Notes under the pieces: generated by a model
Database searches by the model: none
What the model was told of the DNA's origin: nothing
What the model saw: only the letters and a program-made list of their open reading frames with translations
IMG/VR virus record: IMGVR_UViG_3300029258_001513
Reading direction: 5' to 3' (one strand)
DNA length: 55,051 nt
From: an uncultured virus (IMG/VR IMGVR_UViG_3300029258_001513)
Lineage: Duplodnaviria; Heunggongvirae; Uroviricota; Caudoviricetes
Shown: positions 3,223 to 45,340 of the stretch, one piece after another
Numbering within the stretch: position 1 is the stretch's first letter
How the letters are laid out: every line of letters starts with the position of its first letter
Translations under genes and position numbers: made by a program

Positions 3223-4383
3223 ATGGCGAAGAATGGAAAGCCTGTTTCTCCTGACAAGGTGATTGACGCACAGGATGTGGTAGATGATGTCAACCCGTCT
3301 CCCGCGTTGACGAAGTTACGCAAGGACAACGCGAAGCTCCGAACCCGTGTTGACGAACTGAAGCTGGCTCTTGGCGAGGACGAGGAGTATTTCGATGTCA
3401 TTCGCAAGAGTATAGACGCAATCGAGCCGCTCCCCCTGATTCCGTATGAGCCGCCGGAGGACAAGAAGACCATCGGTTCCGCACTTTCGGCGGTGTTGGT
3501 TTTGAGTGACTGGCACATAGGGGAGTACGTGGAGCCCGACGAGATTGAGGATTTCAACACGTTCAACTGGCTTATTGCACAGAGGCGTGTTCACTACCTC
3601 TGCGAGAAGTTGATTGCGTGGGCGAATATCCAGCGTATCGCCGCGAAGATTGAGGAACTGGTTATCATCGTGGCGGGCGACCTTATCTCGGGTGACATCC
3701 ATCAGGAGCTTCAGGTTACGAACGAATGGCCGGTCCCGGTACAGAATGTCAAGGCAGCGTACTTGCTGTCTAAGGCGGTATCTCAACTCGCTCCTCATTT
3801 CAAGAAGGTCCGGGTGGAGTTCGTGACGGCAGACAATCATGCCCGTCGGACAAAGAAGCCGCAGTACAAGCAGACCGGTTTCAACTCCGAGGGATACGTC
3901 ATTGCGTTTCTGGCAAAAGAGCGTCTGCGTGCTCACAAGAACGTCGAGTTCAACGTCCACTCGAAAATCAAAACCAACGTGCCCATTTGCGGGTTCCCGT
4001 ATCTGTGCCAGCACGGTAATACGATTCGTGGTTGGGCGGGGTATCCGTGGTACGGCGTGGACCGTCAGGTTTCCCGCGAGGCAAAGGCTCGCCGGATGAT
4101 GCCGACGAAGACGTTCTACAAGTGCATCATCGGGCACTTCCATACGCCCCTCAAGACGATGGATTACATCGTGAACGGCAGCCTGACGGGAACGACCGAG
4201 CTTGACCACGGGCAGGGCAGGCACGCTCCGCCGTGTCAGGTCGCGTTCTTGGTCCACCCGAAGTATGGCGATTTCAACTTCAACGAGTTCTACCTGCACT
4301 TCGGGGATGAGATTGATTTCGGAGGAGCGGAACTCGTTCACGACCCGGAGGACGAAGATGCCATCACCGAAGCAATACATTGA
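3223..4383 (+). CDS. Calcineurin-like metallophosphoesterase / nuclease
   Basis: SDWHIG, GDLISG, DNH, QHG, GHFH motifs. Confidence 0.8.
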   Translation: MAKNGKPVSPDKVIDAQDVVDDVNPSPALTKLRKDNAKLRTRVDELKLALGEDEEYFDVIRKSIDAIEPLPLIPYEPPEDKKTIGSALSAVLVLSDWHIGEYVEPDEIEDFNTFNWLIAQRRVHYLCEKLIAWANIQRIAAKIEELVIIVAGDLISGDIHQELQVTNEWPVPVQNVKAAYLLSKAVSQLAPHFKKVRVEFVTADNHARRTKKPQYKQTGFNSEGYVIAFLAKERLRAHKNVEFNVHSKIKTNVPICGFPYLCQHGNTIRGWAGYPWYGVDRQVSREAKARRMMPTKTFYKCIIGHFHTPLKTMDYIVNGSLTGTTELDHGQGRHAPPCQVAFLVHPKYGDFNFNEFYLHFGDEIDFGGAELVHDPEDEDAITEAIH

Positions 4384-5014
4384 CCTTCAGATGCCGAGCA
4401 TTATGGGTATGGGGGCGGTGGGTCCGACACTCGCCGTGCTTACCGCAACACTGTATTCCGCTCTGTGTTCGATGATGGAGGTTCCCCCTCATTGGGCCTA
4501 TGCAGCCATCATGCTTGTCCTGAGCGGGCTTTTGGCGACCTTCCCGACGGCGAAGATGACGTATCCCCTGTGGCAGAAGGTCGCACTGTGGCCGATTGCC
4601 ACGGCTATCGTTTTCTCGATGGCATGGGGTACGAATAATGGGATGTCGGTCGGAGAAGATGCGTTGAATGGTGACAGTCCGGTAGTGGAGGAAGTCTCTT
4701 CGTGGTCATTTTCCCTTGTGCCGTCTGCGTATGCGGGAAATGGCGATACGAAGTTGACGTTGCCCGAGAAGCCCATCTTGAACAAGGTGGATTTCTCCCA
4801 TGTGATGTTCGACTCGAAGAAGGCTGTCTCACAGGAGCCCTTCAAGAAGATACCCAAGGACACGTGGGGGTTGAGTTGGAAGGGCGTCTTGACTGTCTAT
4901 CTCAAGGACGACAAGGGGGTATGGTGGCAATACCAGTTGCGTCCGCCGGAGCCCAAGCCCGAGCCGATTCAGTCTCAACGCCCTCTCAAGGGCGGCTTCT
5001 TCAAGCGATACTAG
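4358..5014 (+). CDS. Hypothetical membrane protein
   Basis: Probable start MPSPKQ; three hydrophobic segments in N-terminal half. Confidence 0.6.
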   Translation: MPSPKQYIDLQMPSIMGMGAVGPTLAVLTATLYSALCSMMEVPPHWAYAAIMLVLSGLLATFPTAKMTYPLWQKVALWPIATAIVFSMAWGTNNGMSVGEDALNGDSPVVEEVSSWSFSLVPSAYAGNGDTKLTLPEKPILNKVDFSHVMFDSKKAVSQEPFKKIPKDTWGLSWKGVLTVYLKDDKGVWWQYQLRPPEPKPEPIQSQRPLKGGFFKRY

Positions 5015-5082
5015 GTTTCTGAAGAAAAGACGTGCGTCTGGTGGTCTCCCGTGTGTATAGTAGGGATGCTTGTGAGAAAGAT

Positions 5083-5110
5083 TCAGAATCTTGTGTTCCT
5101 CTTGCAATGA
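5083..5110 (+). promoter_or_regulatory. Phage promoter motif A
   Basis: TCAGAAT-N13-TGCAATGA. Confidence 0.75.
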
Positions 5111-5116
5111 GGGTAC

Positions 5117-5229
5117 AGGAGAAAATGATGTACTAGGGATTTACATAGCTGGCACGTGGTCCTCCGAGGGGACCGTTACACTGATTGGTGTCACACTGAT
5201 TAGCATAACGGTCATCAACCAAAGGAGGA
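5117..5229 (+). promoter_or_regulatory. Putative amber-sensing leader ORF / translational attenuator
   Basis: AGGAG RBS, ATG 5125, in-frame TAG at 5134 and 5146, TGA 5182; TCCTCC (5160-5165) complementary to downstream SD GGAGGA (5224-5229). Confidence 0.45.
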
Positions 5230-5233
5230 AATC

Positions 5234-5578
5234 ATGACCACGGCTACTATCGAACTGACCAAGACGCAGGTCGCACATCGCGAAGCCTGTGCATATCTCA
5301 AGGGCATTCTGTGCGGTTACGCTGACCGCAAGGGTCGTCCCTATCACTCCAAGCGGGAACCGTTCGAGTGGAGCCCGGCTTTTACGGCTGGCTTCAATGA
5401 GGGCAGGGACTCGTGGGCGAGTGCGGACGCCATTACCGGCACCCATATCATCCACAACAGGTTGCGTAACCGTCCCCCGCACGCGGGCGGTCACGGCTAC
5501 ACGGCTTGGGCTCGTGGCAACCTGAACATGTATCTCGGTGATTTGGCCGGGGAGTTGGAGGGCTTTCTCGATGAATAA
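5234..5578 (+). CDS. Hypothetical protein
   Basis: 114-aa ORF with GGAGGA RBS. Confidence 0.7.
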   Translation: MTTATIELTKTQVAHREACAYLKGILCGYADRKGRPYHSKREPFEWSPAFTAGFNEGRDSWASADAITGTHIIHNRLRNRPPHAGGHGYTAWARGNLNMYLGDLAGELEGFLDE

Positions 5579-5906
5579 GGCACTCTACATTCTCATCCGT
5601 CCCGAGTTGACGAAGAGCCAGAGGATTCCGCAGGCGTGTCATGCGATGGCGGAGTTCATGGGTGAATACGGTTAGGACGCCGATATTCAGGACTGGCTTA
5701 GGAATCACCGGACGATAATCTGCCTTCAGGCGACCGAGGAGCAGATGGGTGACATCGGTGACGCCCTGTGGAAACGGGGCGAAAACCGCTCGGCGGCGTT
5801 CATCGACAGCGACTTTCCCGAGGACTTTGGCTGGACGGCGATTGCCTTCCCGCCGATGGATAAGGAGGAGGGTCGCAAACTGTTCGGGCACCTTCGGCTT
5901 GCCTGA
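5571..5906 (+). CDS. Pth2-like peptidyl-tRNA hydrolase interrupted by in-frame TAG (5673-5675)
   Basis: LYILIRPEL..QACHAMAEF..*..W...IICL...F.D.D...GWTAIAFPP...LFGHLRL resembles the PTH2 family across the TAG; missed by the ORF track. Confidence 0.75.
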
Positions 5907-5954
5907 CAACGTGTGCCCGGCCTGCCTTCGGGTGGGTCGGGCATTCATTTTCAT

Positions 5955-6179
5955 GGTCACGGGATGCGTCGGGGCTCATACCCCCGTTCCACCGGCTTGA
6001 TACTTCGACGGAGTAGCTGAAGACGCCTCGTGAATCCCGTTATGGCGAAACGGGATGAGGCGGGATAGGTGAAAAGAGACGAGAGGAAGGCAGGGGTGAG
6101 CATCGTTTCCGAGTCTGTTTTCGCTTCGCCAAGCGTATTCAGACGGAGTTATCAGGTTCGAGTCCTGCCGTGACTACCA
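5955..6179 (+). ncRNA. tRNA-fMet-like RNA lacking a D arm, with ~165-nt insert
   Basis: GGTCACG/CGTGACT-ACCA ends, CGGGG-CTCATAC-CCCCG arm, CAGG-TTCGAGT-CCTG T arm. Confidence 0.6.
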
Positions 6180-6186
6180 CTTTCTT

Positions 6187-6214
6187 TCAGAATCCCGGAC
6201 GGCTCGTGCAATGA
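6187..6214 (+). promoter_or_regulatory. Phage promoter motif A
   Basis: TCAGAAT-N13-TGCAATGA before ATG 6221. Confidence 0.75.
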
Positions 6215-6220
6215 GGAAGC

Positions 6221-6559
6221 ATGAAAGAACTTGATGCGATACGTCAGTCGGAGGACATGAAGCGGCTTGTCTCCCTGACTTCCGAGGTGGAAGCTCTGAA
6301 GTGGAAGGTGACGGCTCAGGTTGAGGATGCTTGTGCGGTTTACGGGAAGCCGGGGGAGTTGCTGACGGATTGGGAGAAACGGCTGGATGCCGTGGAGCGG
6401 CTCGTTGAGCATGAGGACGTACAGGCTGTCTGGGATGACGGTAAGACGCAGACGGCGACGAACCCCTTGGGGTTCCTTCAGTTTGAGGTTCGGAGGGTAC
6501 GGAGGGCCATTGAGCAGCATCGGGAGATGGGGCTCAGTCGGTGTCCTCGAAAAAGTTGA
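6221..6559 (+). CDS. Hypothetical protein
   Basis: 112-aa ORF behind motif A. Confidence 0.7.
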   Translation: MKELDAIRQSEDMKRLVSLTSEVEALKWKVTAQVEDACAVYGKPGELLTDWEKRLDAVERLVEHEDVQAVWDDGKTQTATNPLGFLQFEVRRVRRAIEQHREMGLSRCPRKS

Positions 6560-6568
6560 AAAAAGTTG

Positions 6569-6597
6569 TTGCGTGCCCCAAGGCTGGGGAGTATAGT
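6569..6597 (+). promoter_or_regulatory. Sigma70-type promoter of the tRNA operon
   Basis: TTGCGT-N17-TATAGT with upstream A tracts. Confidence 0.7.
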
Positions 6598-6816: not shown

Positions 6817-6893
6817 GGACTGATAGCTCAGATTACATGGTAGAGCGGCGGGTGAAATTCCGCAGGTCGTGAGTTCGATTCTCACTTAGTCCA
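6817..6893 (+). tRNA. tRNA-Phe(GAA)-like with atypical anticodon loop
   Basis: Full cloverleaf, but anticodon arm GCGGG-TGAAAT-TCCGC is 1 nt short; enlarged D loop. Confidence 0.6.
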
Positions 6894-6970
6894 CAAGCTG
6901 GTAACAGCATTGTTCATTGACAATTGAATGAGATTGCGGGGCAGACCACGCCAAAGGTCTGTCCCGATAC

Positions 6971-7046
6971 GGAGTGTGTGCAGGTCTGGTGATTGCGCTG
7001 GTCTGAAAAACCAGAGAATCCGGTTCGATTCCGGGACACTCCACCA
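6971..7046 (+). tRNA. tRNA-Phe(GAA)
   Basis: CTGGT-CTGAAAA-ACCAG; encoded CCA. Confidence 0.9.
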
Positions 7047-7179
7047 TCGTCGAAGCACGCTTCAGCAGAGCGATACATCACTGGTTCGATTCCAGTATTC
7101 CCCGCCAGAGGGTATAATCTGGGGAATACGCCCACTGTTGGTTGGGCATACCGTTCAGCGGCTATCGGTGCGGAGACGA
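7047..7179 (+). ncRNA. Y RNA (YrlA)-like permuted tRNA mimic, copy 1
   Basis: GTCGAA..CGCTTCAGCA..GATAC 5' strand, GCGGCTATCGGTGCGGAGACGA 3' strand; inside: T arm, acceptor 3' strand+GCCA, loop, acceptor 5' strand, D arm. Confidence 0.7.
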
Positions 7180-7183
7180 ATTT

Positions 7184-7268
7184 GGATGAGTGGCGGAATT
7201 GGCATACGCGCAAGACTCAGAATCTTGTGTCTTCGGGCATACGAGTTCAAATCTCGTCTCATCCACCA
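7184..7268 (+). tRNA. tRNA-Leu(CAG)
   Basis: CAAGA-CTCAGAA-TCTTG, long variable arm, CCA. Confidence 0.92.
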
Positions 7269-7494
7269 GCAAGGGAAAAGAAAGGTCAGCGAATCTATTG
7301 GCTCGTGCAGTCACGTGAGCGGGTACGAGGGAGACCGATATCGGGATGAAATAAGACCTCCCTTGCACGAATTTGATGTTCAGGAGGGAACGCCAGAACA
7401 GAAAGCTGGGGCAATGTCCGTGCGAGTTGTCCCGTACAAAGCCGAGAAGGCAGCTACGGCAGAGGGGTAAAAGTCCTCCATTCGCACGGTCTAC

Positions 7495-7580
7495 GGGCGA
7501 GTGGCGTAATCAGGCAGCCGCGACAGGCTTAGAACCTGTTGACTTCGGTCGTGCGAGTTCGACTCTCGCCTCGCCCACCA
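7495..7580 (+). tRNA. tRNA-Leu(TAG)
   Basis: ACAGG-CTTAGAA-CCTGT, long variable arm, CCA. Confidence 0.92.
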
Positions 7581-7590
7581 GAGGTGTATA

Positions 7591-7758
7591 ATGAAAAATA
7601 TGAAGACGATGAAGTGTTGTGTTTGTGACAAGGACGTGAGGCTGGACGGGGAGCCCCCCCCGAAATGGTTCGGGAAGTATAACGTGGACAAGTTAATTCG
7701 TGTTATATGTCGTGAATGTGTTATGCTTCCTGAGAACAAGGATTGGTGGAAAGACTGA
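7591..7758 (+). CDS. Small Zn-finger-like protein (55 aa)
   Basis: GAGGT RBS; CCVC...CREC. Confidence 0.55.
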   Translation: MKNMKTMKCCVCDKDVRLDGEPPPKWFGKYNVDKLIRVICRECVMLPENKDWWKD

Positions 7759-7760
7759 AT

Positions 7761-7845
7761 GCCGATGTGATGGAACTGGCAGACATGCGACTCTCAAAAA
7801 GTCGTGCCTTCGGGCGTGTGAGTTCGATTCTCACCATCGGCACCA
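7761..7845 (+). tRNA. tRNA-Leu(CAA)
   Basis: CGACT-CTCAAAA-AGTCG, CCA. Confidence 0.92.
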
Positions 7846-7949
7846 TTTTGACGGGACAACCGTAGAAGCAAACTGAGTCATTCCTTTAGCGGGGAACAAG
7901 ACAGGGGAAGCGAAGGTTGTAACAGAGGGTAGCCCTTCTCCCGTCTTAT

Positions 7950-8040
<91 letters not shown>

Positions 8041-8265
8041 ATGTTGAAACGATGTGGAATATGTGCGAAGCCGATACTCGGAGTGGGGCTTGAGGATGTT
8101 GCTTGTCCGGGACATAGGGATGTCCCGTTTGACGAGTGGGAATTACTGGTGATGAAATGCCCCAACGGTTCAGTGGCGATAGGAAGTGAAATTGAAATAC
8201 AAGGATGGCAGGAAGAAACAGAAGACCAGAACAAGCTGGTGCAAGTTCTGGAAGTGGCACCGTGA
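8041..8265 (+). CDS. Small hypothetical protein
   Basis: ATG directly after the tRNA CCA; CxxC. Confidence 0.45.
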   Translation: MLKRCGICAKPILGVGLEDVACPGHRDVPFDEWELLVMKCPNGSVAIGSEIEIQGWQEETEDQNKLVQVLEVAP

Positions 8266-8322
8266 GAAACGAACGTGCCGGAAGGAGGACACCATGAGCG
8301 AGGATGGCTATACAAGAGAAGG

Positions 8323-8379
8323 GAGATGCAAGTAAGGCAGACTGGCAATCTGCGCGTGGCCGTAACCTGCGTCTCACCA
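8323..8379 (+). ncRNA. Armless tRNA-like hairpin (GGC anticodon loop, ACCA end)
   Basis: GAGATGCA/TGCGTCTC-ACCA; GCAGA-CTGGCAA-TCTGC. Confidence 0.45.
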
Positions 8380-8383
8380 ATAT

Positions 8384-8474
8384 GGGCGGTTGTAGCTGAG
8401 CGGCGAAAGCACCAGACTGTAAATCTGGCACCTAATGGTAAACATCGGAGGTTCGAGTCCTTCACCGCCCACCA
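8384..8474 (+). tRNA. tRNA-Tyr(GTA)
   Basis: CCAGA-CTGTAAA-TCTGG, long variable arm, CCA. Confidence 0.88.
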
Positions 8475-8647
8475 AGTATTACTGAATCGGTGAGTATTCC
8501 CGATAAGTAATAAAGGCAATTTGAGTAATAGAAGGGAAACAATAGTTCCCGAATAGGAACTTGAGCAACAAAAGGGAGCAGGAACGACTCTTTTTGTTAC
8601 ACGAAATACAACATAAATGTTGTGAAAGGCGACACGGAATACAACAT

Positions 8648-8721
8648 GGCGGGTTGGCCGAGTGGCTAGGTGCGTGGCTGCAAACCACGATACATCAGTT
8701 CGATTCTGATACCCGCCTCCA
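8648..8721 (+). tRNA. tRNA-Cys(GCA)
   Basis: CGTGG-CTGCAAA-CCACG, U73, CCA. Confidence 0.92.
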
Positions 8722-8806
8722 ATGATTCCACGGATATGTTCAATTTCACTGCCGAGTGAAATGAACGGTTTCAGTAAAACGAAATGAGTCGTTGTCCGAG
8801 TGGCGA

Positions 8807-8881
8807 GGTGCGATGGCCGAGGGGTAAGGCGGGAATCTGCAAAATTCCATTTCATCAGTTCGATTCTGATTCGCACTTCCA
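8807..8881 (+). tRNA. tRNA-Cys(GCA), second copy
   Basis: GGAAT-CTGCAAA-ATTCC, U73, CCA. Confidence 0.9.
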
Positions 8882-8883
8882 AA

Positions 8884-9108
8884 ATGAAGACGAAGTTGAT
8901 ATCGAGGGTACTTGAGAGAAGAATTGAAGCCAGAGAGAACGCTGCTGCCCTATTTGGAAGGGTATGTCGGGATTACGACGGGTGGGCCTGCTGGTCGGGC
9001 TCAGAGGATTGCATGATGGTTCACAAGAAGGTCGGGAAAAGAGGAGGCCCCGAGACAAGGTTTGTCAGGGGCTCCGTGGCAGTCGTTGCGGATGAGAGGC
9101 CAGCGTAA
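8884..9108 (+). CDS. Small hypothetical cargo protein
   Basis: ORF between tRNA-Cys and an orphan tRNA 3' half. Confidence 0.5.
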   Translation: MKTKLISRVLERRIEARENAAALFGRVCRDYDGWACWSGSEDCMMVHKKVGKRGGPETRFVRGSVAVVADERPA

Positions 9109-9166
9109 ACTCGCTACATCAGTTTAATTCTGATACGGCTCTTCGGGTGAAGAAAGGAGACGTAAG

Positions 9167-9406
9167 GTGAGATTAGACGACGTGATTGTTGGCTTGAGGA
9201 AGATTGGCCTGTGTGCCTGTCATGTCGAGTGTTTTGGGACTGAAGAAGGAATCGGACATTACAGCCATCCGTATCCCGGAGACCAGTATGGCTGGTTCAA
9301 GACCAAGAACGGCATGTTGATAATGGTGGTCTTTTACAAGCCGATAACGGAGGATAAGAAGAGGATTGCCGAGGATTGGATTGAGAAGTGGGAAATTCAC
9401 GTGTAG
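9167..9406 (+). CDS. Small hypothetical cargo protein
   Basis: AGGAG RBS; flanked by duplicated tRNA 3' fragments. Confidence 0.6.
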   Translation: MRLDDVIVGLRKIGLCACHVECFGTEEGIGHYSHPYPGDQYGWFKTKNGMLIMVVFYKPITEDKKRIAEDWIEKWEIHV

Positions 9407-9474
9407 TTCAATTCTGATACGGCTCTCTAAGTGTTTGCACAAAGAGACATAATACGCTACATTGTGCAAATGGT

Positions 9475-9502
9475 TCAGAATTATCGTTGTCTTGTGCAAT
9501 GA
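9475..9502 (+). promoter_or_regulatory. Phage promoter motif A
   Basis: TCAGAAT-N13-TGCAATGA ahead of an ncRNA. Confidence 0.75.
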
Positions 9503-9512
9503 GGGAAGCGAA

Positions 9513-9666
9513 GGGCAGTGCCAAGGTCGGCACCGTACTGGCGAAAGCCGATACCCCGGCGATAACCGAAAAGGGTCGCAACCTTACGGGTCGGGGATTG
9601 CCGGGGAACGGCATTCAGGCATACCGTGGTGCGGCATGATGAGTTCGACTCTCATACTGTCCATCA
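9513..9666 (+). ncRNA. tRNA-like RNA with G3:U70/A73 and anticodon loop replaced by a structured insert
   Basis: GGGCAGT/ACTGTCC-A, ATGAG-TTCGACT-CTCAT T arm, CCGTACT/GGTGCGG closing stem. Confidence 0.65.
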
Positions 9667-9674
9667 GATTTGAT

Positions 9675-9703
9675 TCCAGTGTGGCTCAATTGGTAGAGCG
9701 GGG
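9675..9703 (+). pseudogene. Orphan tRNA 5' half (Asn-like)
   Basis: TCCAGTG-TG-GCTC-AATTGGTA-GAGC truncated just before the HNH gene promoter. Confidence 0.6.
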
Positions 9704-9716
9704 ATAACACGTCTTG

Positions 9717-9732
9717 ATAATTCTTTGATATT
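9717..9732 (+). promoter_or_regulatory. Phage promoter motif B
   Basis: ATAATTCTTTGATATT upstream of AGGAGG RBS. Confidence 0.6.
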
Positions 9733-9759
9733 GGTTTCTCTCTGTAGAAGGAGGTTACC

Positions 9760-10308
9760 ATGTCAAAGAGTTCAGAGAAGGTTAAGAGGTGGCGGCGAAG
9801 GACAAAAGAGCGTTTGGTAAGGGCAATGGGTGGGGAGTGTGTATGTTGTGGGTACTCAAAGTGCTTGGATGCTCTTGAATTCCATCATCGAGACCCGAAT
9901 GAGAAGGATGTGGGTATAGGGGGAATCCGTGGAAATGTGGTTGCATGGAAAAGGATTATTGAAGAGGTAAAGAAATGCGTCCTTGTGTGTAGTAATTGTC
10001 ATAAGGAAATTCATCGTGGAATATCTTTTATTCCTGTCGATGCGAAAGGGTTTGACGAATCTTATGAGGATTATCGAAAAAGTAAGGTGATTGAGATGGA
10101 GCCGTGTCCTGTTTGTGGCGGACCTAAAGCAACTCACCTGAAAACCTGCTCACATGTTTGTGCGGCAAAGAGGAAAAGTCCCGTTGATTGGGATTCTGTG
10201 AATCTTGAAGGGATGATGAAGGAGATGTCATTTGCGGAAATAGGTGACGAACTTGATGTTTCTGATATGGCAGTTCGTAAAAGGGCTAAAAAGTTAGGTC
10301 TAGTGTGA
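9760..10308 (+). CDS. HNH homing endonuclease
   Basis: GGECVCCGY..LEFHHRDP..LVCSNCHKEIH; C-terminal HTH-like segment; AT-rich. Confidence 0.85.
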   Translation: MSKSSEKVKRWRRRTKERLVRAMGGECVCCGYSKCLDALEFHHRDPNEKDVGIGGIRGNVVAWKRIIEEVKKCVLVCSNCHKEIHRGISFIPVDAKGFDESYEDYRKSKVIEMEPCPVCGGPKATHLKTCSHVCAAKRKSPVDWDSVNLEGMMKEMSFAEIGDELDVSDMAVRKRAKKLGLV

Positions 10309-10309
10309 T

Positions 10310-10400
10310 TCATCGGTACGCTAATTGGTAAGCGACGAAGCTGTTAACTTCGCGTATGGGAGCAATCCCTATGGAGGTTCGAGTCCTCCCCGATGAGCCA
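10310..10400 (+). tRNA. tRNA-Asn(GTT) with long variable arm
   Basis: CGAAG-CTGTTAA-CTTCG, U1-A72, G73, CCA; 20-nt variable region. Confidence 0.85.
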
Positions 10401-10673
10401 GTTCCAAGGGTAGTTGGCTTAATGGCAGCCAGCTTTAATGAGTGGGTCGCTGAGAATCGTTCCGTGATCGCCGGAGGAATCCCGGCTATTCGGAATGGGG
10501 CAGCAGAGATGAGATACAGGCCGGACGCAACCGGATGTCAGACTGCTCTGTTGTCAGGCAAAGGGGGGTTGCGGCTCCCGGCGGGGAAAGCATTTCGTGT
10601 GATTCTTTAGCATCCCGCAGGCCATACTCAATCGCACGGTGGACTCTTTGGCGTAACAGCACGCCTTTGGAAC
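10401..10673 (+). ncRNA. Unidentified structured RNA
   Basis: Ends pair (GTTCCAAGGG/CCTTTGGAAC); fills the gap between tRNAs; several internal hairpins. Confidence 0.5.
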
Positions 10674-10677
10674 GTTT

Positions 10678-10752
10678 TGCGAGATGCGGCCAATTGGTCT
10701 AGGCCGGGGATAGCGCGTCCCGATGCAAGTTCGAGTCTTGCTCTCGCAGCCA
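10678..10752 (+). tRNA. tRNA-like gene with non-canonical anticodon loop (TAGCGCG)
   Basis: TGCGAGA/TCTCGCA-GCCA, intact D and T arms, no U33. Confidence 0.6.
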
Positions 10753-10753
10753 A

Positions 10754-10918
10754 TCGTCGAAACACGCTTCAGCAGTGAGATACTTCGCTTGCAAAGCCCG
10801 GTGCTCGTAAGAGCGTGCAGGTTCAAGCCCTGCTCCGGTGACTGAAAGGTTGCCGGATGGCGGAACTGGCAGACGCGCCGGATAACGTGACTCGTTGCGG
10901 CTATTGGTGTGGAGACGA
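10754..10918 (+). ncRNA. Y RNA (YrlA)-like permuted tRNA mimic, copy 2 (Leu-like)
   Basis: Same flanking strands as copy 1; encloses Leu-type variable arm, T arm, closed acceptor stem and GCGGAACTGGCAGACGC D arm. Confidence 0.7.
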
Positions 10919-11015
10919 AATGGAGGGTTGCCAGAGCATGGTAATGGGCGGAAAGCTGTTGCGTTGCTAGTTTGCTTATGATAGTCTGTCTGTGAATTAC
11001 CACGGGAGGACTGTC

Positions 11016-11534
11016 ATGGGAAGAAAAGCGAATGCAATTTGTGATAGGTGTGGGAAACCCTATTATCGAAGGCCATACCAAGAGGCTTACGAACACGGGT
11101 ATTGTTCTCGGAAGTGTTTTGCAGTTGGGAAAACCATTCCTGAGAGGGAGTGTCAGCACTGCAAGGCAATGTTCAAACCTGTGAAAAGGACGCAGCGGTA
11201 CTGTTCGAGAAGGTGTGCGGGGGTTGGCAGCAGGAGACCGTGGAGTACGAAGAAAAATGGAATGCCTCGTAATGCTAACGCGAAAAGGCTTGCGTTCCTG
11301 AAAGAGAAGTCTGGAGCGGATTGCTGTATGGTCCAAGGTTGTGATTATGGGAGGACGCTTGATGTTCATCGGTTAGTTGAAGGAAAGGATGGCGGGAAGT
11401 ATTCTTTGGGCAATATGTTTATGATATGTCCAAACCATCATGCGGAAATTCATCGTGGTGTCGTAAGAGTGGAGAAGGGGGGAGATTTCGTTCTTCGGGC
11501 GATAGACGCTGGAGACATGGCAGAGTCAGGCTAA
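11016..11534 (+). CDS. HNH endonuclease with N-terminal CxxC..YCS..C repeats
   Basis: LDVHRL..GGKYSLGNMFMICPNHHAEIH; GGAGGA RBS. Confidence 0.85.
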   Translation: MGRKANAICDRCGKPYYRRPYQEAYEHGYCSRKCFAVGKTIPERECQHCKAMFKPVKRTQRYCSRRCAGVGSRRPWSTKKNGMPRNANAKRLAFLKEKSGADCCMVQGCDYGRTLDVHRLVEGKDGGKYSLGNMFMICPNHHAEIHRGVVRVEKGGDFVLRAIDAGDMAESG

Positions 11535-11603
11535 TGCACTCGACTGCTAATCGAGAGGCGTCAGAGATGGCGTCCGTGGGTTCAAATCCCACTGTCTCCG
11601 CCA
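11511..11603 (+). tRNA. tRNA-Ser(GCT)
   Basis: CTCGA-CTGCTAA-TCGAG, long variable arm, GCCA; overlaps the HNH 3' end. Confidence 0.92.
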
Positions 11604-11617
11604 GAGAGGAGGATGAG

Positions 11618-11728
11618 ATGAATGCTTATGTACAACTGTTTCTTGGCATTCTTGTGGTATGTGCCATGTGGAAGATGGCAGATAGGATGTGTATTGTATT
11701 TCGCACAAGGAAGCGGGGGAGGCGTTGA
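11618..11728 (+). CDS. Small membrane peptide (36 aa)
   Basis: GGAGGA RBS; MNAYVQLFLGILVVCAMW...RKRGRR. Confidence 0.5.
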   Translation: MNAYVQLFLGILVVCAMWKMADRMCIVFRTRKRGRR

Positions 11729-11785
11729 TTGCTAAACCGAGACGCGGTAACACGTACAGGGGTTCAAATCCCTTACCCTCCGCCA

Positions 11786-11965
11786 GTTGCGAAGTACGCT
11801 TCAGCACGAGGGATACTTCTTCTAACTGTTGATTAGAACGACAAGGTTCGAGTCCTTGGCCCGGAGCCAATACGAGTAGTTGACGGATATGTCAACTGCG
11901 TGTATTCATTCCGGGTGCATGGTGCTAGTAATCGTGCCCCTTGGCGACTATCGGTACGGAGCAAC
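11786..11965 (+). ncRNA. Y RNA (YrlA)-like permuted tRNA mimic, copy 3 (Asn-like)
   Basis: Covarying flanks GTTGC..GTAC/GTAC..GCAAC; anticodon arm TCTAA-CTGTTGA-TTAGA, T arm, GCCCGGA-GCCA, TCCGGGT, D-like arm. Confidence 0.7.
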
Positions 11966-11968
11966 ATT

Positions 11969-12058
11969 GGAGAGTTGCCAGAGTCAGGTCAATCGGGCTC
12001 GCTTGGAAAGCGATGCGTGGTAAAACACACGGGGGTTCAAATCCCTCACTCTCCGCCA
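11969..12058 (+). tRNA. tRNA-Ser(GGA)
   Basis: TCGC-TTGGAAA-GCGA, GCCA. Confidence 0.9.
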
Positions 12059-12282
12059 GACCCGAACCGTGAAGTCCGGCGACTCATAATCAAAGGGCGT
12101 ACAGGAACGGGATAGGTGCCGCCCGACGGGGATGGGGCATTATACAGGGAGATGAAATGGCTACCACTTCTCAGATGGCTAGTTGAAAGACCCGTCAAGC
12201 TATAGGTCGAGGAGACAGGCCGGGAAGTTCTCCTGTGGGCCGTGGGTAGGTTGCAAGTATCCCACGGATACGTCTCCATCAA

Positions 12283-12373
12283 GGAAGGTTGCCAGAGTGG
12301 TAATGGGACGGTCTCGAAAACCGATGCCACGGTGATGAGCCGTGCGGGAGTTCAATCCTCTCACCTTCCGCCA
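12283..12373 (+). tRNA. tRNA-Ser(CGA)
   Basis: CGGT-CTCGAAA-ACCG, GCCA. Confidence 0.92.
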
Positions 12374-12534
12374 GAGTCGCTTCTTGTGTAGCGTGAATTG
12401 AAACGACGTGGGGAATCGTGAAGATGATGACACCAACATTTCGGTTGAGACAGCCCGGTGAAATGTCCATCACGGACAGGAAGAACATGCTGGCTCATCC
12501 GGGATGCGTGGTGACGTGGGATGAAACAGAGGAT

Positions 12535-12625
12535 GGAGGGTTGGCAGAGCGGGAATGCGACGGTCTTGAAAACCGATGCCACGGTGATGAGCCGTGCGGG
12601 AGTTCGATTCTCTCACCCTCCGCCA
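12535..12625 (+). tRNA. tRNA-Ser(TGA)
   Basis: CGGT-CTTGAAA-ACCG, GCCA. Confidence 0.92.
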
Positions 12626-12757
12626 GAGGAACACTTGGCTTGCGAGCCGGGTAACACGTGAAATGCCAAGTCTGAGAAATCCATCAGCGGCAGGCAGTTG
12701 CGACGGCACATAGTGGGCAAGACTGTTCGTTCCAGAGTACCCGTGTTCCTTGTTTTG

Positions 12758-12842
12758 GCCGGAGTGATGGAATTGGCAGACAACCTACACTTAAAATGTG
12801 GGGCTTTCGGGCGTGGGAGTTCGAGTCTCCCCTCCGGCACCA
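12758..12842 (+). tRNA. tRNA-Leu(TAA)
   Basis: CTACA-CTTAAAA-TGTGG, CCA. Confidence 0.9.
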
Positions 12843-22769: not shown

Positions 22770-23081
22770 ATGGCAGGAATCCAATGGCGTGAGGTAAGGG
22801 GCTACGAGTTTACCCCCGAAGAGGCTCAAGCGGCTTCCGATTTCTCGGAAATCGTGAATTTGCATGGTCTCGACCTTGAAGCGGCGTATAATCTGTTCAA
22901 AGCCAAGGGGACAACTCTGGGGGTTGGACAGCGGCTCCTCTTTGCCGAGAAGATACCTATTGACCGGGCGACCGTGCTTTTGCTTTGTGACCCTGACGAG
23001 CGTATCAGGGGTGTCGTGGAGAAGCGGGTCGCCGAACACAGGGAGCAGGAAAGTGGCGGAATCATCACAGCCCGAGTATGA
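22770..23081 (+). CDS. Hypothetical protein
   Basis: 103-aa ORF. Confidence 0.6.
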   Translation: MAGIQWREVRGYEFTPEEAQAASDFSEIVNLHGLDLEAAYNLFKAKGTTLGVGQRLLFAEKIPIDRATVLLLCDPDERIRGVVEKRVAEHREQESGGIITARV

Positions 23082-26000
23082 CAAGGCCAAGCTGAGGAAA
23101 GAACTCATCAAGGGCATTGTCCATCTTGCCCGGCACAAGGAGTTCTACGGGCACATTGTCCAGCAGTTCGAGAAGGTCTGGGTGTGTGGCAAGCATCGGA
23201 TAGAGACAGCCGCAGTCGGGCGTTTTCGCGGCGAGCGTTTCATCAAGATGTGGATGAACATGGATTTCTTTGCCGGTATCTTTGCCGAGAACACCCGTGA
23301 GCAGGCGTGGACATACATGCTGAACGTGCAGGAGCACGAAATCATCCATTGTTTTCCGAAGGGGACAATGGTTGGTGGCTCGTTTGTACCGATAGAAAAG
23401 ATGACTGAGGGAATGGCTATTGTGGGTTCTGATGGGGAAAGGCATGAGGCAGAGCGGGTTGAGTCTCGTCGGTACACAGGGGGTTTGGTGTCTATTAAGC
23501 CGATGGGGGTAATGCCTTTTAATGTGACGGACCATCATCGCATTCTTGTGGCTGACATTGGCTGGAAAACCATCAACACCGATAAGCCAAGACGGAATGT
23601 GCGCTTAATACGGAACGTTGGCTGGAAGGAATCCCAAGATGTAAAGAAGGGGGATTGGCTTGCTGTTCCTCGGATGAAGGGACACAGGGAAGATGTCGAG
23701 ATAGACGTGTCTCAATATATGAAGGGGAACAAATGGAGTCTCCCTTGGGGGGTGCGAGTGGGCCGGATTCCTCTGAATGAGGATGTTGCGTGGTTGCTTG
23801 GGTATTATTGTGCCGAAGGTAGTGCAAGTTGCTCTACGGGGCAAGTGATATTCTCAATGCACGAGAAAGAGCGAGTTTCTAATGGCTCTGAAGTGGCCCG
23901 AATTGTTGAGGGATGGGGTCTTGGGGGTAAGCCTTTCTATCAGCGAGGAGAAGGTCATTCGTTGAGGATTGTTTTCAATTCCGTTGTAATGGCTCGGATG
24001 CTTCGGGATATGGCGGGGTACCACGCTAACACCAAGGCGGTTCCTCCAGAAGTGTTTTGGCATCGTGATGATGGTATTGTAAAGGCTTTTCTTCGTGGAT
24101 ATTTCGATGGAGATGGCGCAACGGAGAGCGAGGTGTTCTCGTCAGCGAGTGTGTCCAGCACATTAGCCTGTCAGCTTCAAATGATGTCTGCCCGTATCGG
24201 AGCATGGATGAACATGCACTTTGATGAGCTTTCTAGGCAGCCTCCAAGGGTCATTGTCAGTGGGAAGCCGAGAAAACTGAAGGACCAATACCGTTTGCAT
24301 TCTGGTGGCGATGATATCCGTGTGTTGCTCGGATATAGTCCCGTGAGAAAGAAGGGCAGGGTAACACGGCATCATGTCATCAGTGAAGACTTCATCTTTG
24401 TTCCTGTAAAAGAAGTGTCCCGGCAAGAGAAGTGGTCGGGGACGGTCTATAACCTTCGGAGTCCGACAAAGGATTATCTTGTTCACAATGTCGTAGTTCA
24501 TAATTGTGTGTTCGGGCACCTCTTCCTGACGTTCGAGGACAAGACTCGTGGTGGCGTGGCGGTGGATTGTGTGGTCAACGGGATTATGAATCCGCAGGAC
24601 GATAAGAAATTGATGCCGGGGAATTACGTCCATCCTGCCCATTATGGATTTCCGCTGGACAAATCCGCCATGTGGTACTATACACATCTTCGGGAAAACC
24701 CGCGTTTCCAGCAGCAGTGCAAGTCCGGGGCTTTCGGGGCTGGTGGTGCCCTGTCTCACATCATGTCCGGGCACAGTGCGTGGGATGACGTGAAGGACGA
24801 CCCTGTTGCTCAGGAGTTTGCCAAGGATATTGTTCGCAAGGCTAAAGACCTTTGCAACAAGCAGTACGGGAACATTCCCGGTGCGGTTCAGCAGCAGATA
24901 GAGGAACTGCTCAAGCGTAAGAAGGCGATTGTTCCGTGGGGACGGGTTCTCCGAATGTTCTGTGCCTCGGCACAGGAGTCTATACTGGACTACACGGTCA
25001 AGAGGGTGAGTAGACGGTACGGGACTCGTCCGGGGACACGGAAGGGCGATGTGCTCAAGCTGGCTGTGGCTATTGACACGTCGGGATGTTTTGTTGGAGA
25101 AACGTTGGTCCCAATGGCAAATGGAGGAATCAAACGAATTGACGATGTGGTGGAGGGAGATATGGTCGTGTCGTCGGCGTTTGGCGGTTGCCAAGTGCCC
25201 AGAAAATGTACCAATGTATTTGAAAAAGAAGCAACGGAGCTTGTCTCTGTGACAGCGGACAAGGGATTTTCATTTACCTGTACCCCAAATCACCGAATCT
25301 TCGTTTTGCGGCCAGAAGTCGGGCCGAAGCGTATTCGTAAATATGATAAACTTAGACGGGGAAAGATGATGAATGAGCTTCGAGAAAGCTCTGTTGTTGA
25401 AATTCCGGCAGAAGAGCTTCAGCCGGGAGACTGGCTGATAACAACACATGGTTCTGCACCTTGGATGACTCCGTTAGAGGGCTCTCTTCTACCAATGACG
25501 GATGCTCAGTCTGGAATGTATGTTACAGAGTCGGATATTTCGGAAGCTGATAGGCTAAAGAGGCAAAAGGGGGTATCCTATCGGAAACAGCACAGGGACG
25601 GAATGATGCGTTTTCATTATGCGTCAATCTTGGAAGCGAAGCGGCGAGGTGTCAGCAAAACGCTTCCGGTAATACCGAAGCAACCGACGGATGATTTTTG
25701 TCAGATTGTTGGATATGCGATTGGTGATGGGCATTTGTCCGATGCAACTTTTGTGGTAACGGACGAGTCTCGTAGTCGTCTTGATCTATACAATGACTTG
25801 ATGGTAGGCGTTTTCGGTTTGACGGGAGATATCAAGGAGTGGGATCGTAGAAGGCTTGTTGTAAACTCGAAGCCGCTAGTGGAATGGTGGAAGGACAGTT
25901 TACCAGAGACCGTTGTCCGTTCTCCGGACAGGACAATTCCGCAGTCTTTGACTCGTTTGCCGGATAGCAAGATTGCTGCACTCCTTCGGGGATTGTTTGA

Positions 26001-26805
26001 CGCAGAGGGTTCTGTTGGTCCGCATTATGTTAACTTTGCCAATTCGTCCAGAAGTCTACATGAACAGATTCATTTGCTTCTCCTCCGGCTTGGAATAGAA
26101 TCAACCATTTGTGATTCAAATGTGGATGACAGGGAGATTAGCGGGCACGTGATAAAAGGGGGAGGGCACTGGCGATTAAGCATTTACGGATTGGAGAATC
26201 TTGAAAGATTTGAAGAGATTGTTGGATTCGGGTGTCAGGAAAAGGCTATGAAGCTGGCGCGAGTCGTAGAGTCAATTGGCTTGTATCACAACAATGGTTC
26301 ATTCCCCTACACTGAACATCAAAGGCTGGTACAAGTGAGGGCTGTTGAGAAGACCAAATTGTCGCAACCAGTTTTGGTTTATGACCTTGAAATTGAGGGA
26401 GAGCACAATTACATGGCGAATGGTGTTGTGGTTCATAATTCTATCAGTGATGAGCAACTCGTATTGTTCTGGAACGAGATAAACTGGGTGCGGCGTAATG
26501 GTGCCGAGGTATGGATTTACGAATGTGATACGCAAATCTCTCCCCGGTCGCCATTCAAGTATCGTGGCAAGTGGGATGGTACGGTTCACGGTCGCGGGGG
26601 CACGGACCTTGAGCCGCCTCTCAAGGAATGCGAGGGCAAGTATGATGCTCTCATCTACTTTACGGATTTCTATGCTCCGCAGATTGAAACCCAGTATCGG
26701 ATTCCGATTCTGTGGGTTCTGACGACGGAGTTGGAAAAGGATGCTTACCCCTATCGGTGGGGAAAGCACATCAAGATAGACGACGGCAAAGCCGTGGCAG
26801 CATGA
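23053..26805 (+). CDS. DUF2201-like metallopeptidase + vWA protein with two inteins
   Basis: HEIIH|CVFGH zincin motif, AIDTSG|S MIDAS, GRGGTD, IYFTD; probable GTG start 23053. Confidence 0.85.
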   Translation: MAESSQPEYDKAKLRKELIKGIVHLARHKEFYGHIVQQFEKVWVCGKHRIETAAVGRFRGERFIKMWMNMDFFAGIFAENTREQAWTYMLNVQEHEIIHCFPKGTMVGGSFVPIEKMTEGMAIVGSDGERHEAERVESRRYTGGLVSIKPMGVMPFNVTDHHRILVADIGWKTINTDKPRRNVRLIRNVGWKESQDVKKGDWLAVPRMKGHREDVEIDVSQYMKGNKWSLPWGVRVGRIPLNEDVAWLLGYYCAEGSASCSTGQVIFSMHEKERVSNGSEVARIVEGWGLGGKPFYQRGEGHSLRIVFNSVVMARMLRDMAGYHANTKAVPPEVFWHRDDGIVKAFLRGYFDGDGATESEVFSSASVSSTLACQLQMMSARIGAWMNMHFDELSRQPPRVIVSGKPRKLKDQYRLHSGGDDIRVLLGYSPVRKKGRVTRHHVISEDFIFVPVKEVSRQEKWSGTVYNLRSPTKDYLVHNVVVHNCVFGHLFLTFEDKTRGGVAVDCVVNGIMNPQDDKKLMPGNYVHPAHYGFPLDKSAMWYYTHLRENPRFQQQCKSGAFGAGGALSHIMSGHSAWDDVKDDPVAQEFAKDIVRKAKDLCNKQYGNIPGAVQQQIEELLKRKKAIVPWGRVLRMFCASAQESILDYTVKRVSRRYGTRPGTRKGDVLKLAVAIDTSGCFVGETLVPMANGGIKRIDDVVEGDMVVSSAFGGCQVPRKCTNVFEKEATELVSVTADKGFSFTCTPNHRIFVLRPEVGPKRIRKYDKLRRGKMMNELRESSVVEIPAEELQPGDWLITTHGSAPWMTPLEGSLLPMTDAQSGMYVTESDISEADRLKRQKGVSYRKQHRDGMMRFHYASILEAKRRGVSKTLPVIPKQPTDDFCQIVGYAIGDGHLSDATFVVTDESRSRLDLYNDLMVGVFGLTGDIKEWDRRRLVVNSKPLVEWWKDSLPETVVRSPDRTIPQSLTRLPDSKIAALLRGLFDAEGSVGPHYVNFANSSRSLHEQIHLLLLRLGIESTICDSNVDDREISGHVIKGGGHWRLSIYGLENLERFEEIVGFGCQEKAMKLARVVESIGLYHNNGSFPYTEHQRLVQVRAVEKTKLSQPVLVYDLEIEGEHNYMANGVVVHNSISDEQLVLFWNEINWVRRNGAEVWIYECDTQISPRSPFKYRGKWDGTVHGRGGTDLEPPLKECEGKYDALIYFTDFYAPQIETQYRIPILWVLTTELEKDAYPYRWGKHIKIDDGKAVAA
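23350..24504 (+). mobile_element. Intein with LAGLIDADG endonuclease
   Basis: CFPKGT...LLGYYCAEG...FLRGYFDGDG...VVHN|C. Confidence 0.9.
25087..26439 (+). mobile_element. Intein with LAGLIDADG endonuclease
   Basis: CFVGET...TPNH...IVGYAIGDG...LLRGLFDAEG...VVHN|S. Confidence 0.9.
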
Positions 26806-45312: not shown

Positions 45313-45340
45313 GGCGGTAATCCGGGTTGATTGGGTGGCG

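Follow-up and report, generated by a model that had tools for sequence, protein, structure and literature searches.

In pyrrolysine and selenocysteine recoding a dedicated tRNA reads an in-frame stop codon in a small number of genes while the genome keeps the standard code, and a special residue is inserted by way of a dedicated synthetase or factor. An early internal stop serves as a sensor in prfB, the RF2 gene, a translation-quality gene in which the stop is bypassed by a +1 frameshift and no tRNA gene is needed. Start-codon mini-ORFs of the kind found in lambda bar are tied to peptidyl-tRNA hydrolase and are classic sources of peptidyl-tRNA drop-off. The amber-recoded phages (Lak, crAss-like; code 15) resemble the phage described here in that a phage tRNA(CUA) is proposed to read UAG in a standard-code host; in the part of their article at hand, Borges et al. 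propose control of expression for these phages and treat suppressor tRNAs such as ours as precursors of recoding (10.1101/2021.08.26.457843).

Suppressor tRNAs of standard-code phages have repeatedly been reported without a target. In the portions of the articles available to us, the XacN1 authors found no suppressor-tRNA target among 18 amber stops (PMC5852040), the RsoM2USA authors named no target (PMC8504454), and a survey of mycobacterial tRNA arrays read the cluster C phage tRNA as pyrrolysine and noted a PTH2-like gene in the array (PMC5966550). Phage PTH2 was noted by Iyer et al., and the accessible part of that work mentions no in-frame stop (PMC7824862). Our full-text literature search, outside whose scope lay most subscription journals and supplements, found no description of an amber-interrupted phage Pth2.

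We propose that the Pth2-like gene described here is gated by programmed amber read-through specific to this gene, in a phage that uses the standard code and with the phage tRNA reading the TAG, and on the evidence of the sequences we regard this as likely. Nonsense suppression is known chemistry; as far as our searches reach, a gate dedicated to one module would be the new part, and it would be a natural counterpart of the tRNA-dependent gates of synthetic biology (PMC7969014, consulted in part). In recoded phages TAGs are scattered through many late genes and TAG is depleted as a stop, whereas here one or two genes carry a TAG at a fixed place, TAG remains a common terminator and the targets are genes of a tRNA-processing type. 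Unlike in pyrrolysine and selenocysteine systems, the residue inserted appears irrelevant, the tRNAs have ordinary bodies, and a search for an RNA hairpin downstream of the gated TAG gave no consistent signal (20 loci, z -3.8 to +0.65; window +0.2). An early stop acting as a sensor would be common to prfB and this gate, but here there is no shift of frame and the phage provides a tRNA; with lambda bar the gate would share the start-codon mini-ORF and the tie to peptidyl-tRNA hydrolase.

The interrupted gene and the genetic code of the phage

The window, by which we mean the whole stretch of 55,051 nucleotides that was analysed, is part of a large tailed phage and encodes a terminase, a portal, inteins and a CCA-adding enzyme. 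The phage genome measures 190 kb or more, of which the window covers 55 kb, and the phage occurs in sediment and seawater metagenome runs. The first-pass annotation had described a 111-codon frame that overlaps the upstream gene and has TAG at codon 35, with an amber suppressor tRNA further upstream. Translation confirmed the frame, which shares 8 nt with the upstream ORF, and ARAGORN and Rfam placed the tRNA(CUA) 3.6 kb from the gene (Table 1). Since the stop of the upstream partner gene overlaps the start of the Pth2-like gene, the pair is probably translationally coupled. The partner gene has no match in Pfam or PHROG, and HMM matches to it were obtained in 22 of the 25 loci L003-L027 of the codon-35 clade described below.

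Table 1. Positions of the interrupted gene and its surroundings in the window
Feature	Position	Strand	Evidence
Amber suppressor-type tRNA, anticodon CUA, ordinary cloverleaf, C38, C73	1879..1952	+	ARAGORN; Rfam tRNA 59.6 bits
Conserved upstream partner gene, 114 aa, motif H-I-x-Y/H-N-R-x-R-x-R-x-P-H	5234..5578	+	
Shine-Dalgarno-like GGAGG, 9 nt ahead of Pth2-like ATG	5557..5561	+	Read from sequence
Pth2-like gene, 111 codons, one in-frame TAG, TGA end	5571..5906	+	Translation, Pfam PTH2, predicted structure
Amber codon, codon 35 (GGT TAG GAC)	5673..5675	+	Sequence, contigs, alignment, model
Terminator-like GC-rich hairpin, TTCG loop, T-rich tail, directly 3' of Pth2-like gene	5914..5951	+	Read from sequence
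tRNA cluster: Phe, five Leu, Tyr, two Cys, Asn, four Ser, one atypical	6817..12842	+	

Between the tRNA(CUA) and the Pth2-like gene a conserved membrane-like protein with no Pfam family is encoded (4265-5014), which is also present in L007, L008, L009 and L011. The tRNA cluster at 6971-12842 is skewed to Leu, Ser, Phe, Tyr, Cys and Asn, and the same set, plus Val and Gly, occurs in the relatives L004, L005, L008 and L009. The atypical tRNA at 6817-6893 was detected by Rfam (45.6 bits) and received no ARAGORN call, and a stretch at about 6145-6179, called by neither program, ends like the 3' half of a tRNA with a T-arm and ACCA. The stretches 6182-6214 and 6552-6572 are joined in contigs of three runs with 12 other letters between them, the contigs then continuing elsewhere, which suggests that they are a repeated promoter-like element of this phage genome. 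Intein-bearing genes with LAGLIDADG domains, the portal gene included, lie at 22864-26805, 37230-41825 and 45335-48199, and some of the insertions are absent in relatives.

The TAG is not an assembly error, which the first-pass annotation had named as one way in which its reading could fail. The contigs of runs X2 and X3 (depth 70-76), which are possible sources of the window, and that of run X7 from another study (depth 3.3, piece 5060-5709) come from three studies and cover the TAG codon with 0 other letters; the check took in four of the nine listed runs, and among the X5 pieces listed none spans the codon. TAG had also been taken for a normal stop of this phage, and it is one: 12 of 63 hand-picked plus-strand ORFs of the window, a set that contains some shadow ORFs, terminate in TAG, and terminal TAGs of window genes align with TAA or TGA ends in relatives, as in the terminase, which ends in TAA in G002 and G004. 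Once TAG is read, long-ORF coverage of the window goes from 0.78 to 0.83, compared with 0.44 to 0.78 in the recoded Lak-C1 control. Comparison with nine related IMG/VR records gave 7 inner stops in 44,486 aligned residues, and when 2,526 stop-spanning queries near the gene were searched only the Pth2-like TAG recurred widely among the matches listed. In these 55 kb no other feature examined requires tRNA(CUA). The phage uses the standard code, and genome-wide recoding is excluded for the window.

To attribute the TAG to genome-wide or block recoding (code 15), to a pseudogene or to a sequencing error one could point to four database homologues that have Q at the TAG column. However, at least one of these Q residues is a gene-calling artefact because L020 codes for residues 1 to 69 of P0002 and has TAG where the Q stands. 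Such explanations are also opposed by the small gain in coverage when TAG is read, by the agreement of independent contigs and by purifying selection on the gene, and we give them hardly any credence. Gln as the inserted residue, which was considered from the Q in database homologues, was dropped since L020 is a TAG gene that had been called under another code.

Conservation of the stop codon in related and distant phages

A metagenome scan returned 28 loci, one of which (L028) is unrelated. At the column of codon 35 the 27 homologous loci have TAG in 22 cases, TAA in one (L021) and a sense codon in four (N, L, S and T); the loci are related, so that these counts are not independent, but a TAG at the same column this often is more than chance. 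Removal of the same phage (L001, L002) and of repeats (L010, L011) leaves 19 distinct TAG sequences, that of the window included. The TAG is kept down to about 41% protein identity with synonymous sites heavily diverged, and homology runs on in the same frame past the stop in all carriers. The pN/pS ratios are 0.05-0.46 before the TAG and 0.20-0.53 after it, with pS up to 0.93 (36 pairs, 9 sequences), and judged by these ratios both halves flanking the TAG are under purifying selection. A TAG unique to this genome followed by a decaying half, the other possibility that had been held against the gene, is therefore not what is seen. In the tree, from which cut or partial genes (L020, L023, L025-L027) and duplicates were left out and which has a midpoint root only, the members of the codon-35 group fall together in a single branch (99/96, 19 rows) with the sense-codon rows in its unresolved base. 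No relative came out of searches of viral contigs, whether these started from the window protein or from alignments of it, and a scan of genome contigs reported 11 relatives and yielded 0 loci.

Outside this clade 27 homologues were hand-chosen from match lists, one or a few per group, leaving out further Erwinia, Klebsiella, Aeromonas, Vibrio, mycobacteriophage and Lak records. In 22 of these 27 the frame begins with a start codon and has TAG at codons 2-4, and in none does TAA or TGA occur there. Cultured phages are among the 22, namely BF, GAP32, ME3, Arash, XacN1, pT24 and the cluster C mycobacteriophages. The 22 are G006, G011, L098, BF, GAP32, fHe-Yen9-04, ME3, RsoM2USA, Arash, pT24, XacN1, Xoo-sp13, RAS14, Myrna, Cane17, ScoobyDoobyDoo and six uncultured huge phages, one of which, LR756501, has an additional second TAG at the codon-35 position. 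In two related phages a ribosome-binding site, ATG, one codon and TAG stand ahead of the Pth2-like frame. RaK2, K64-1, Hallingskeid, L099 and the recoded Lak-C1 are ungated, and more distant third paralogues (L045, L203, L207, L209), which are outside these counts, have open frames. The first-pass reading of a gate at codon 35 is supported, and its scope had been set too narrowly, since the same kind of gate recurs elsewhere in the gene, in further groups of phages and in one more gene.

The preference for TAG is not a general property of such mini-ORFs. In a control, a start mini-ORF preceded 35 of 941 long frames with 10 TAG, 13 TAA and 12 TGA, which is no TAG bias. Across 72 loci totalling 1.43 Mb a blind scan gave 16 matches, eight of them with TAG, and among these eight are six members of the Pth2-like family and one HD-like partner. 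All 33 TAG-gated genes of the tree set themselves terminate in TAA or TGA, and a purine follows the gating TAG in 17/19 and 19/19 cases as against 87/156 terminal TAGs. A further frame of the form ATG-short-TAG-long, unrelated to the Pth2-like and HD-like module, lies at about 16825 of L048 (G006).

It is conceivable that the stop is not read through at all and that a short peptide plus a re-initiated downstream protein are made. An in-frame ATG or GTG follows the TAG by 1-5 codons in six of the 22 start-class genes (XacN1, Xoo-sp13, G006 and three mycobacteriophages), so that a restart without read-through would be possible there, and gene callers record pieces of 34 aa and of 63-76 aa. On the other hand, no conserved start codon is found 3' of the codon-35 TAG in that clade, the first Met after it in the window being residue 59, and re-initiation would leave unexplained why the codon is TAG and why it is linked to a tRNA, while the terminal stops of gated genes avoid TAG. 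We consider re-initiation very unlikely and keep to read-through. The gene is preceded in the three mycobacteriophages by a -35/-10-like pair whose end lies 6-7 nt from the start, which is consistent with a leaderless message that would begin with the start codon and TAG.

XacN1, RsoM2USA and the cluster C mycobacteriophages have the same kind of orphan tRNA, and each now gains a candidate target, in which the TAG closely follows the real start and either precedes the annotated one or belongs to a gene missing from the annotation. In several GenBank records gated genes are absent, truncated or mis-started, and these annotations, like the 'tRNA-Pyl' labels, would have to be corrected. The gate offers a specific, conserved target for tRNAs of this kind, and since it is found in phages growing on ordinary laboratory hosts its purpose is testable.

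Fold of the Pth2-like protein and the HD-like partner

Pth2 proteins (PF01981; MJ0051, 2zv3; Bit1, 1q7s) are known by their AQxxHA and TAxA motifs and an acidic residue at D-x-G, and the Lys of GKxxAQxxHA and the Thr after D-x-G have catalytic roles. The protein described here shares the fold, the AQxxHA and TAxA motifs and the acidic residue. PTH2-like motifs had been read from the frame on both sides of the TAG, and the read-through protein indeed matches Pfam PTH2 with 27.1 bits at a gathering cut-off of 23; the sense-codon homologue L017, at 22.5 bits, lies slightly below it. Profile comparison with solved archaeal Pth2 proteins gave E 1.3e-9, and an AlphaFold2 model (pLDDT 97.7) had 2zv3, 1q7s, 1wn2 and 3erj as its best Foldseek matches, Pth2 structures being matched at TM 0.65-0.84. 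In this model the strand 3-9 and the helix 15-33, both encoded before the TAG, are required by the fold, and the TAG position falls in the loop of three residues that connects helix 15-33 to helix 37-46.

Compared with the family, the gated protein is a divergent paralogue in which the Lys of GKxxAQ is replaced and the G-x-T segment is shortened. The window protein has QRIPQACHA where the canonical motif is GKxxAQxxHA; in the alignment this Lys is missing from the gated rows shown, and 7 of 7 canonical paralogues of phages have it. D79 aligns to the canonical Asp of D-x-G, which is Glu in most start-class genes; the G is replaced by D81, a four-residue alignment gap follows in this region and the canonical Thr is missing. 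An Asp, which may correspond to D79, is important in yeast Pth2 according to the part of that report at hand (10.1101/2024.11.20.624519). Judging from the model, the gated protein is Pth2-like in fold and a putative hydrolase that is without two canonical motif residues. The first-pass view of a conditional switch, as opposed to genome-wide recoding, is supported by the sequences, with read-through the probable route and the word enzyme unproven because of the missing Lys and Thr.

An intact canonical PTH2 paralogue is also present in 9 of 13 jumbo phage records. Canonical phage PTH2 forms a separate branch (100/99) and has an inner stop in none of the nine copies found. Routine recycling would thus be covered in these phages and the gated copy may act conditionally.

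In XacN1, RAS14, Xoo-sp13 and pT24 the Pth2-like domain is fused to an HD-like domain with an H-D-x-G-K motif, which matches Pfam HD weakly (E 0.033). The HD-like gene bears TAG in 10 of 12 distinct copies. Seven are behind a start-proximal TAG (the four fusions, RsoM2USA, LR745206 and L015, the last from the codon-35 clade), three have TAG at codon 47 (BF, GAP32 and fHe-Yen9-04), and two are open and overlap the end of the gated gene (ME3 and Arash). No HD-like gene was found within the 55-kb window. Since the gate is at codons 2-4 elsewhere and also in the adjacent or fused HD-like gene, the gated unit appears to be a small module, and this module is predicted to act on tRNA 3' ends.

The suppressor tRNA and possible roles of the proposed gate

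The tRNA(CUA) and the gate tend to occur together, as the first-pass annotation had led us to expect. Of the 22 TAG loci of the codon-35 clade 12 have a tRNA(CUA) upstream, namely all 10 whose upstream flank exceeds 3 kb and 2 of the 12 whose flank is 1.3 kb or less, and among the 22 start-class carriers a tRNA(CUA) is clear in 18. It is usually 0.3-5 kb from the gene and on the same strand, the distance being 13 kb in RsoM2USA. The ungated RaK2 and Hallingskeid have no match to the tRNA(CUA) pattern genome-wide; a first, loose tRNA pattern had been uninformative. In LR756504, LR745206 and LR756502 the tRNA(CUA) candidates are atypical or ambiguous only, and none was found among the 30 ARAGORN RNA genes of G011, a fragment that is 31% complete. 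The stop is genuine, conserved, in frame and specifically TAG, and it travels with a phage tRNA(CUA). Some observations count against a read-through gate: L021 has at the site a TAA, which a CUA tRNA cannot read; some carriers are without a clear tRNA(CUA); and L099 is ungated with a tRNA(CUA) call at its end. L019 is likewise ungated and stands beside an ambiguous UCU/CUA tRNA.

A tRNA-Pyl has a 6-bp anticodon stem, a 3-nt variable loop and neither the GG of the D-loop nor TpsiC. The tRNA(CUA) of the window is a standard cloverleaf with GG and TTCG and is not of this shape. ARAGORN and GenBank label these tRNAs Pyl and the TAG is strictly conserved, and so the TAG might encode pyrrolysine or another special residue that the protein needs. 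However, the suppressor tRNAs are ordinary cloverleaves with unrelated bodies and acceptor stems and with A, C, G or U as discriminator; the site is a surface loop or an N-terminal tail that shifts among codons 2-4, 35 and 47 and is N, L, S or T in sense homologues; and no pylS, pylB, pylC or pylD gene was found among the 45 window proteins scanned. A special residue is hence highly improbable. When tRNA identity was assigned by the nearest neighbour among 250 tRNAs no consistent isotype emerged. The varied tRNA bodies and the tolerant sites suggest that read-through itself, and not a special residue, is selected. Several suppressor tRNAs show C33, C38 or stem mismatches, which are features that weaken suppressors, and ordinary TAG ends would thereby be spared.

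Under the read-through proposal the phage tRNA(CUA) would be charged by a host synthetase and would compete with host release factor 1 at the gating TAG. Full-length Pth2-like protein would have to wait until the phage tRNA is present in mature, charged form, and even then only a fraction of initiations would yield it, and the identity of the inserted residue would be irrelevant to the gate. Given read-through, the gate may act as a loop that limits itself or the dose, the enzymes stripping or editing the ends of tRNAs being themselves made only with the help of working charged tRNA; this reading, drawn by analogy with prfB, is tentative and in our estimate falls a little short of an even chance.

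If the TAG is read through, a gate of timing or kinship is possible without being probable. Taken by itself, with no feedback, it would serve purely for timing, as an AND gate or to sense kin; the module would be harmful early or outside full infection and would be kept off until the phage tRNA accumulates. All the read-through evidence fits such a gate, as do the two genes under one gate and the intact canonical PTH2 alongside, which leaves the gated copy free to be conditional, and for recoded phages both timing and the sensing of superinfection are put forward in the part consulted of the article by Borges et al. (10.1101/2021.08.26.457843). The closeness of tRNA and gene on one strand, RsoM2USA apart, suggests instead co-expression with little delay, and we hold this version without feedback to be rather unlikely.

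The gate could also sense termination in the host. Read-through would then go up when release factor 1 is scarce or blocked, a state under which peptidyl-tRNA builds up, and the phage tRNA would set the gain or near-cognate host tRNAs would suffice. The TAA of L021 and the gated genes without a clear tRNA(CUA) favour this explanation, as does the place of start-codon mini-ORFs, known from lambda bar, among the sources of peptidyl-tRNA drop-off. It is countered by the codon itself, which is TAG and not TAA or TGA in 22 of 23 stops at codon 35 and in 22 of 22 near the start, and by the tRNA(CUA) in most carriers. A release-factor sensor is unlikely even if read-through is granted, and as an account of the gate overall host sensing is distinctly so.

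Taking these together, we lean slightly towards an undescribed and widespread circuit in phages of Proteobacteria, Bacteroidota and Actinobacteria, in which a suppressor tRNA is kept solely as a sensor that licenses the Pth2-like and HD-like module through a gate at codon 2-4, 35 or 47. If this is true it would explain the orphan 'tRNA-Pyl' genes of standard-code phages, and it would provide a ready stepping stone to genome-wide amber recoding and a reason to hold the suppressor tRNA beforehand.

Other unusual tRNAs were seen in these phages. L004, a related phage, has a selenocysteine-like tRNA with anticodon UCA and a long variable arm (3870-3966). The tRNAs at L018 9384-9469, L019 9375-9447 and L223 1488-1563 have an anticodon loop of irregular form that can be read as UCU, as CUA or as the four-base UCUA, and those of L018 and L019 occupy the usual place of the suppressor and adjoin ungated genes. 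In Lak-C1 (L220 14234-14306) a tRNA called UUA (ochre) lies 0.7 kb upstream of the Pth2-like gene.
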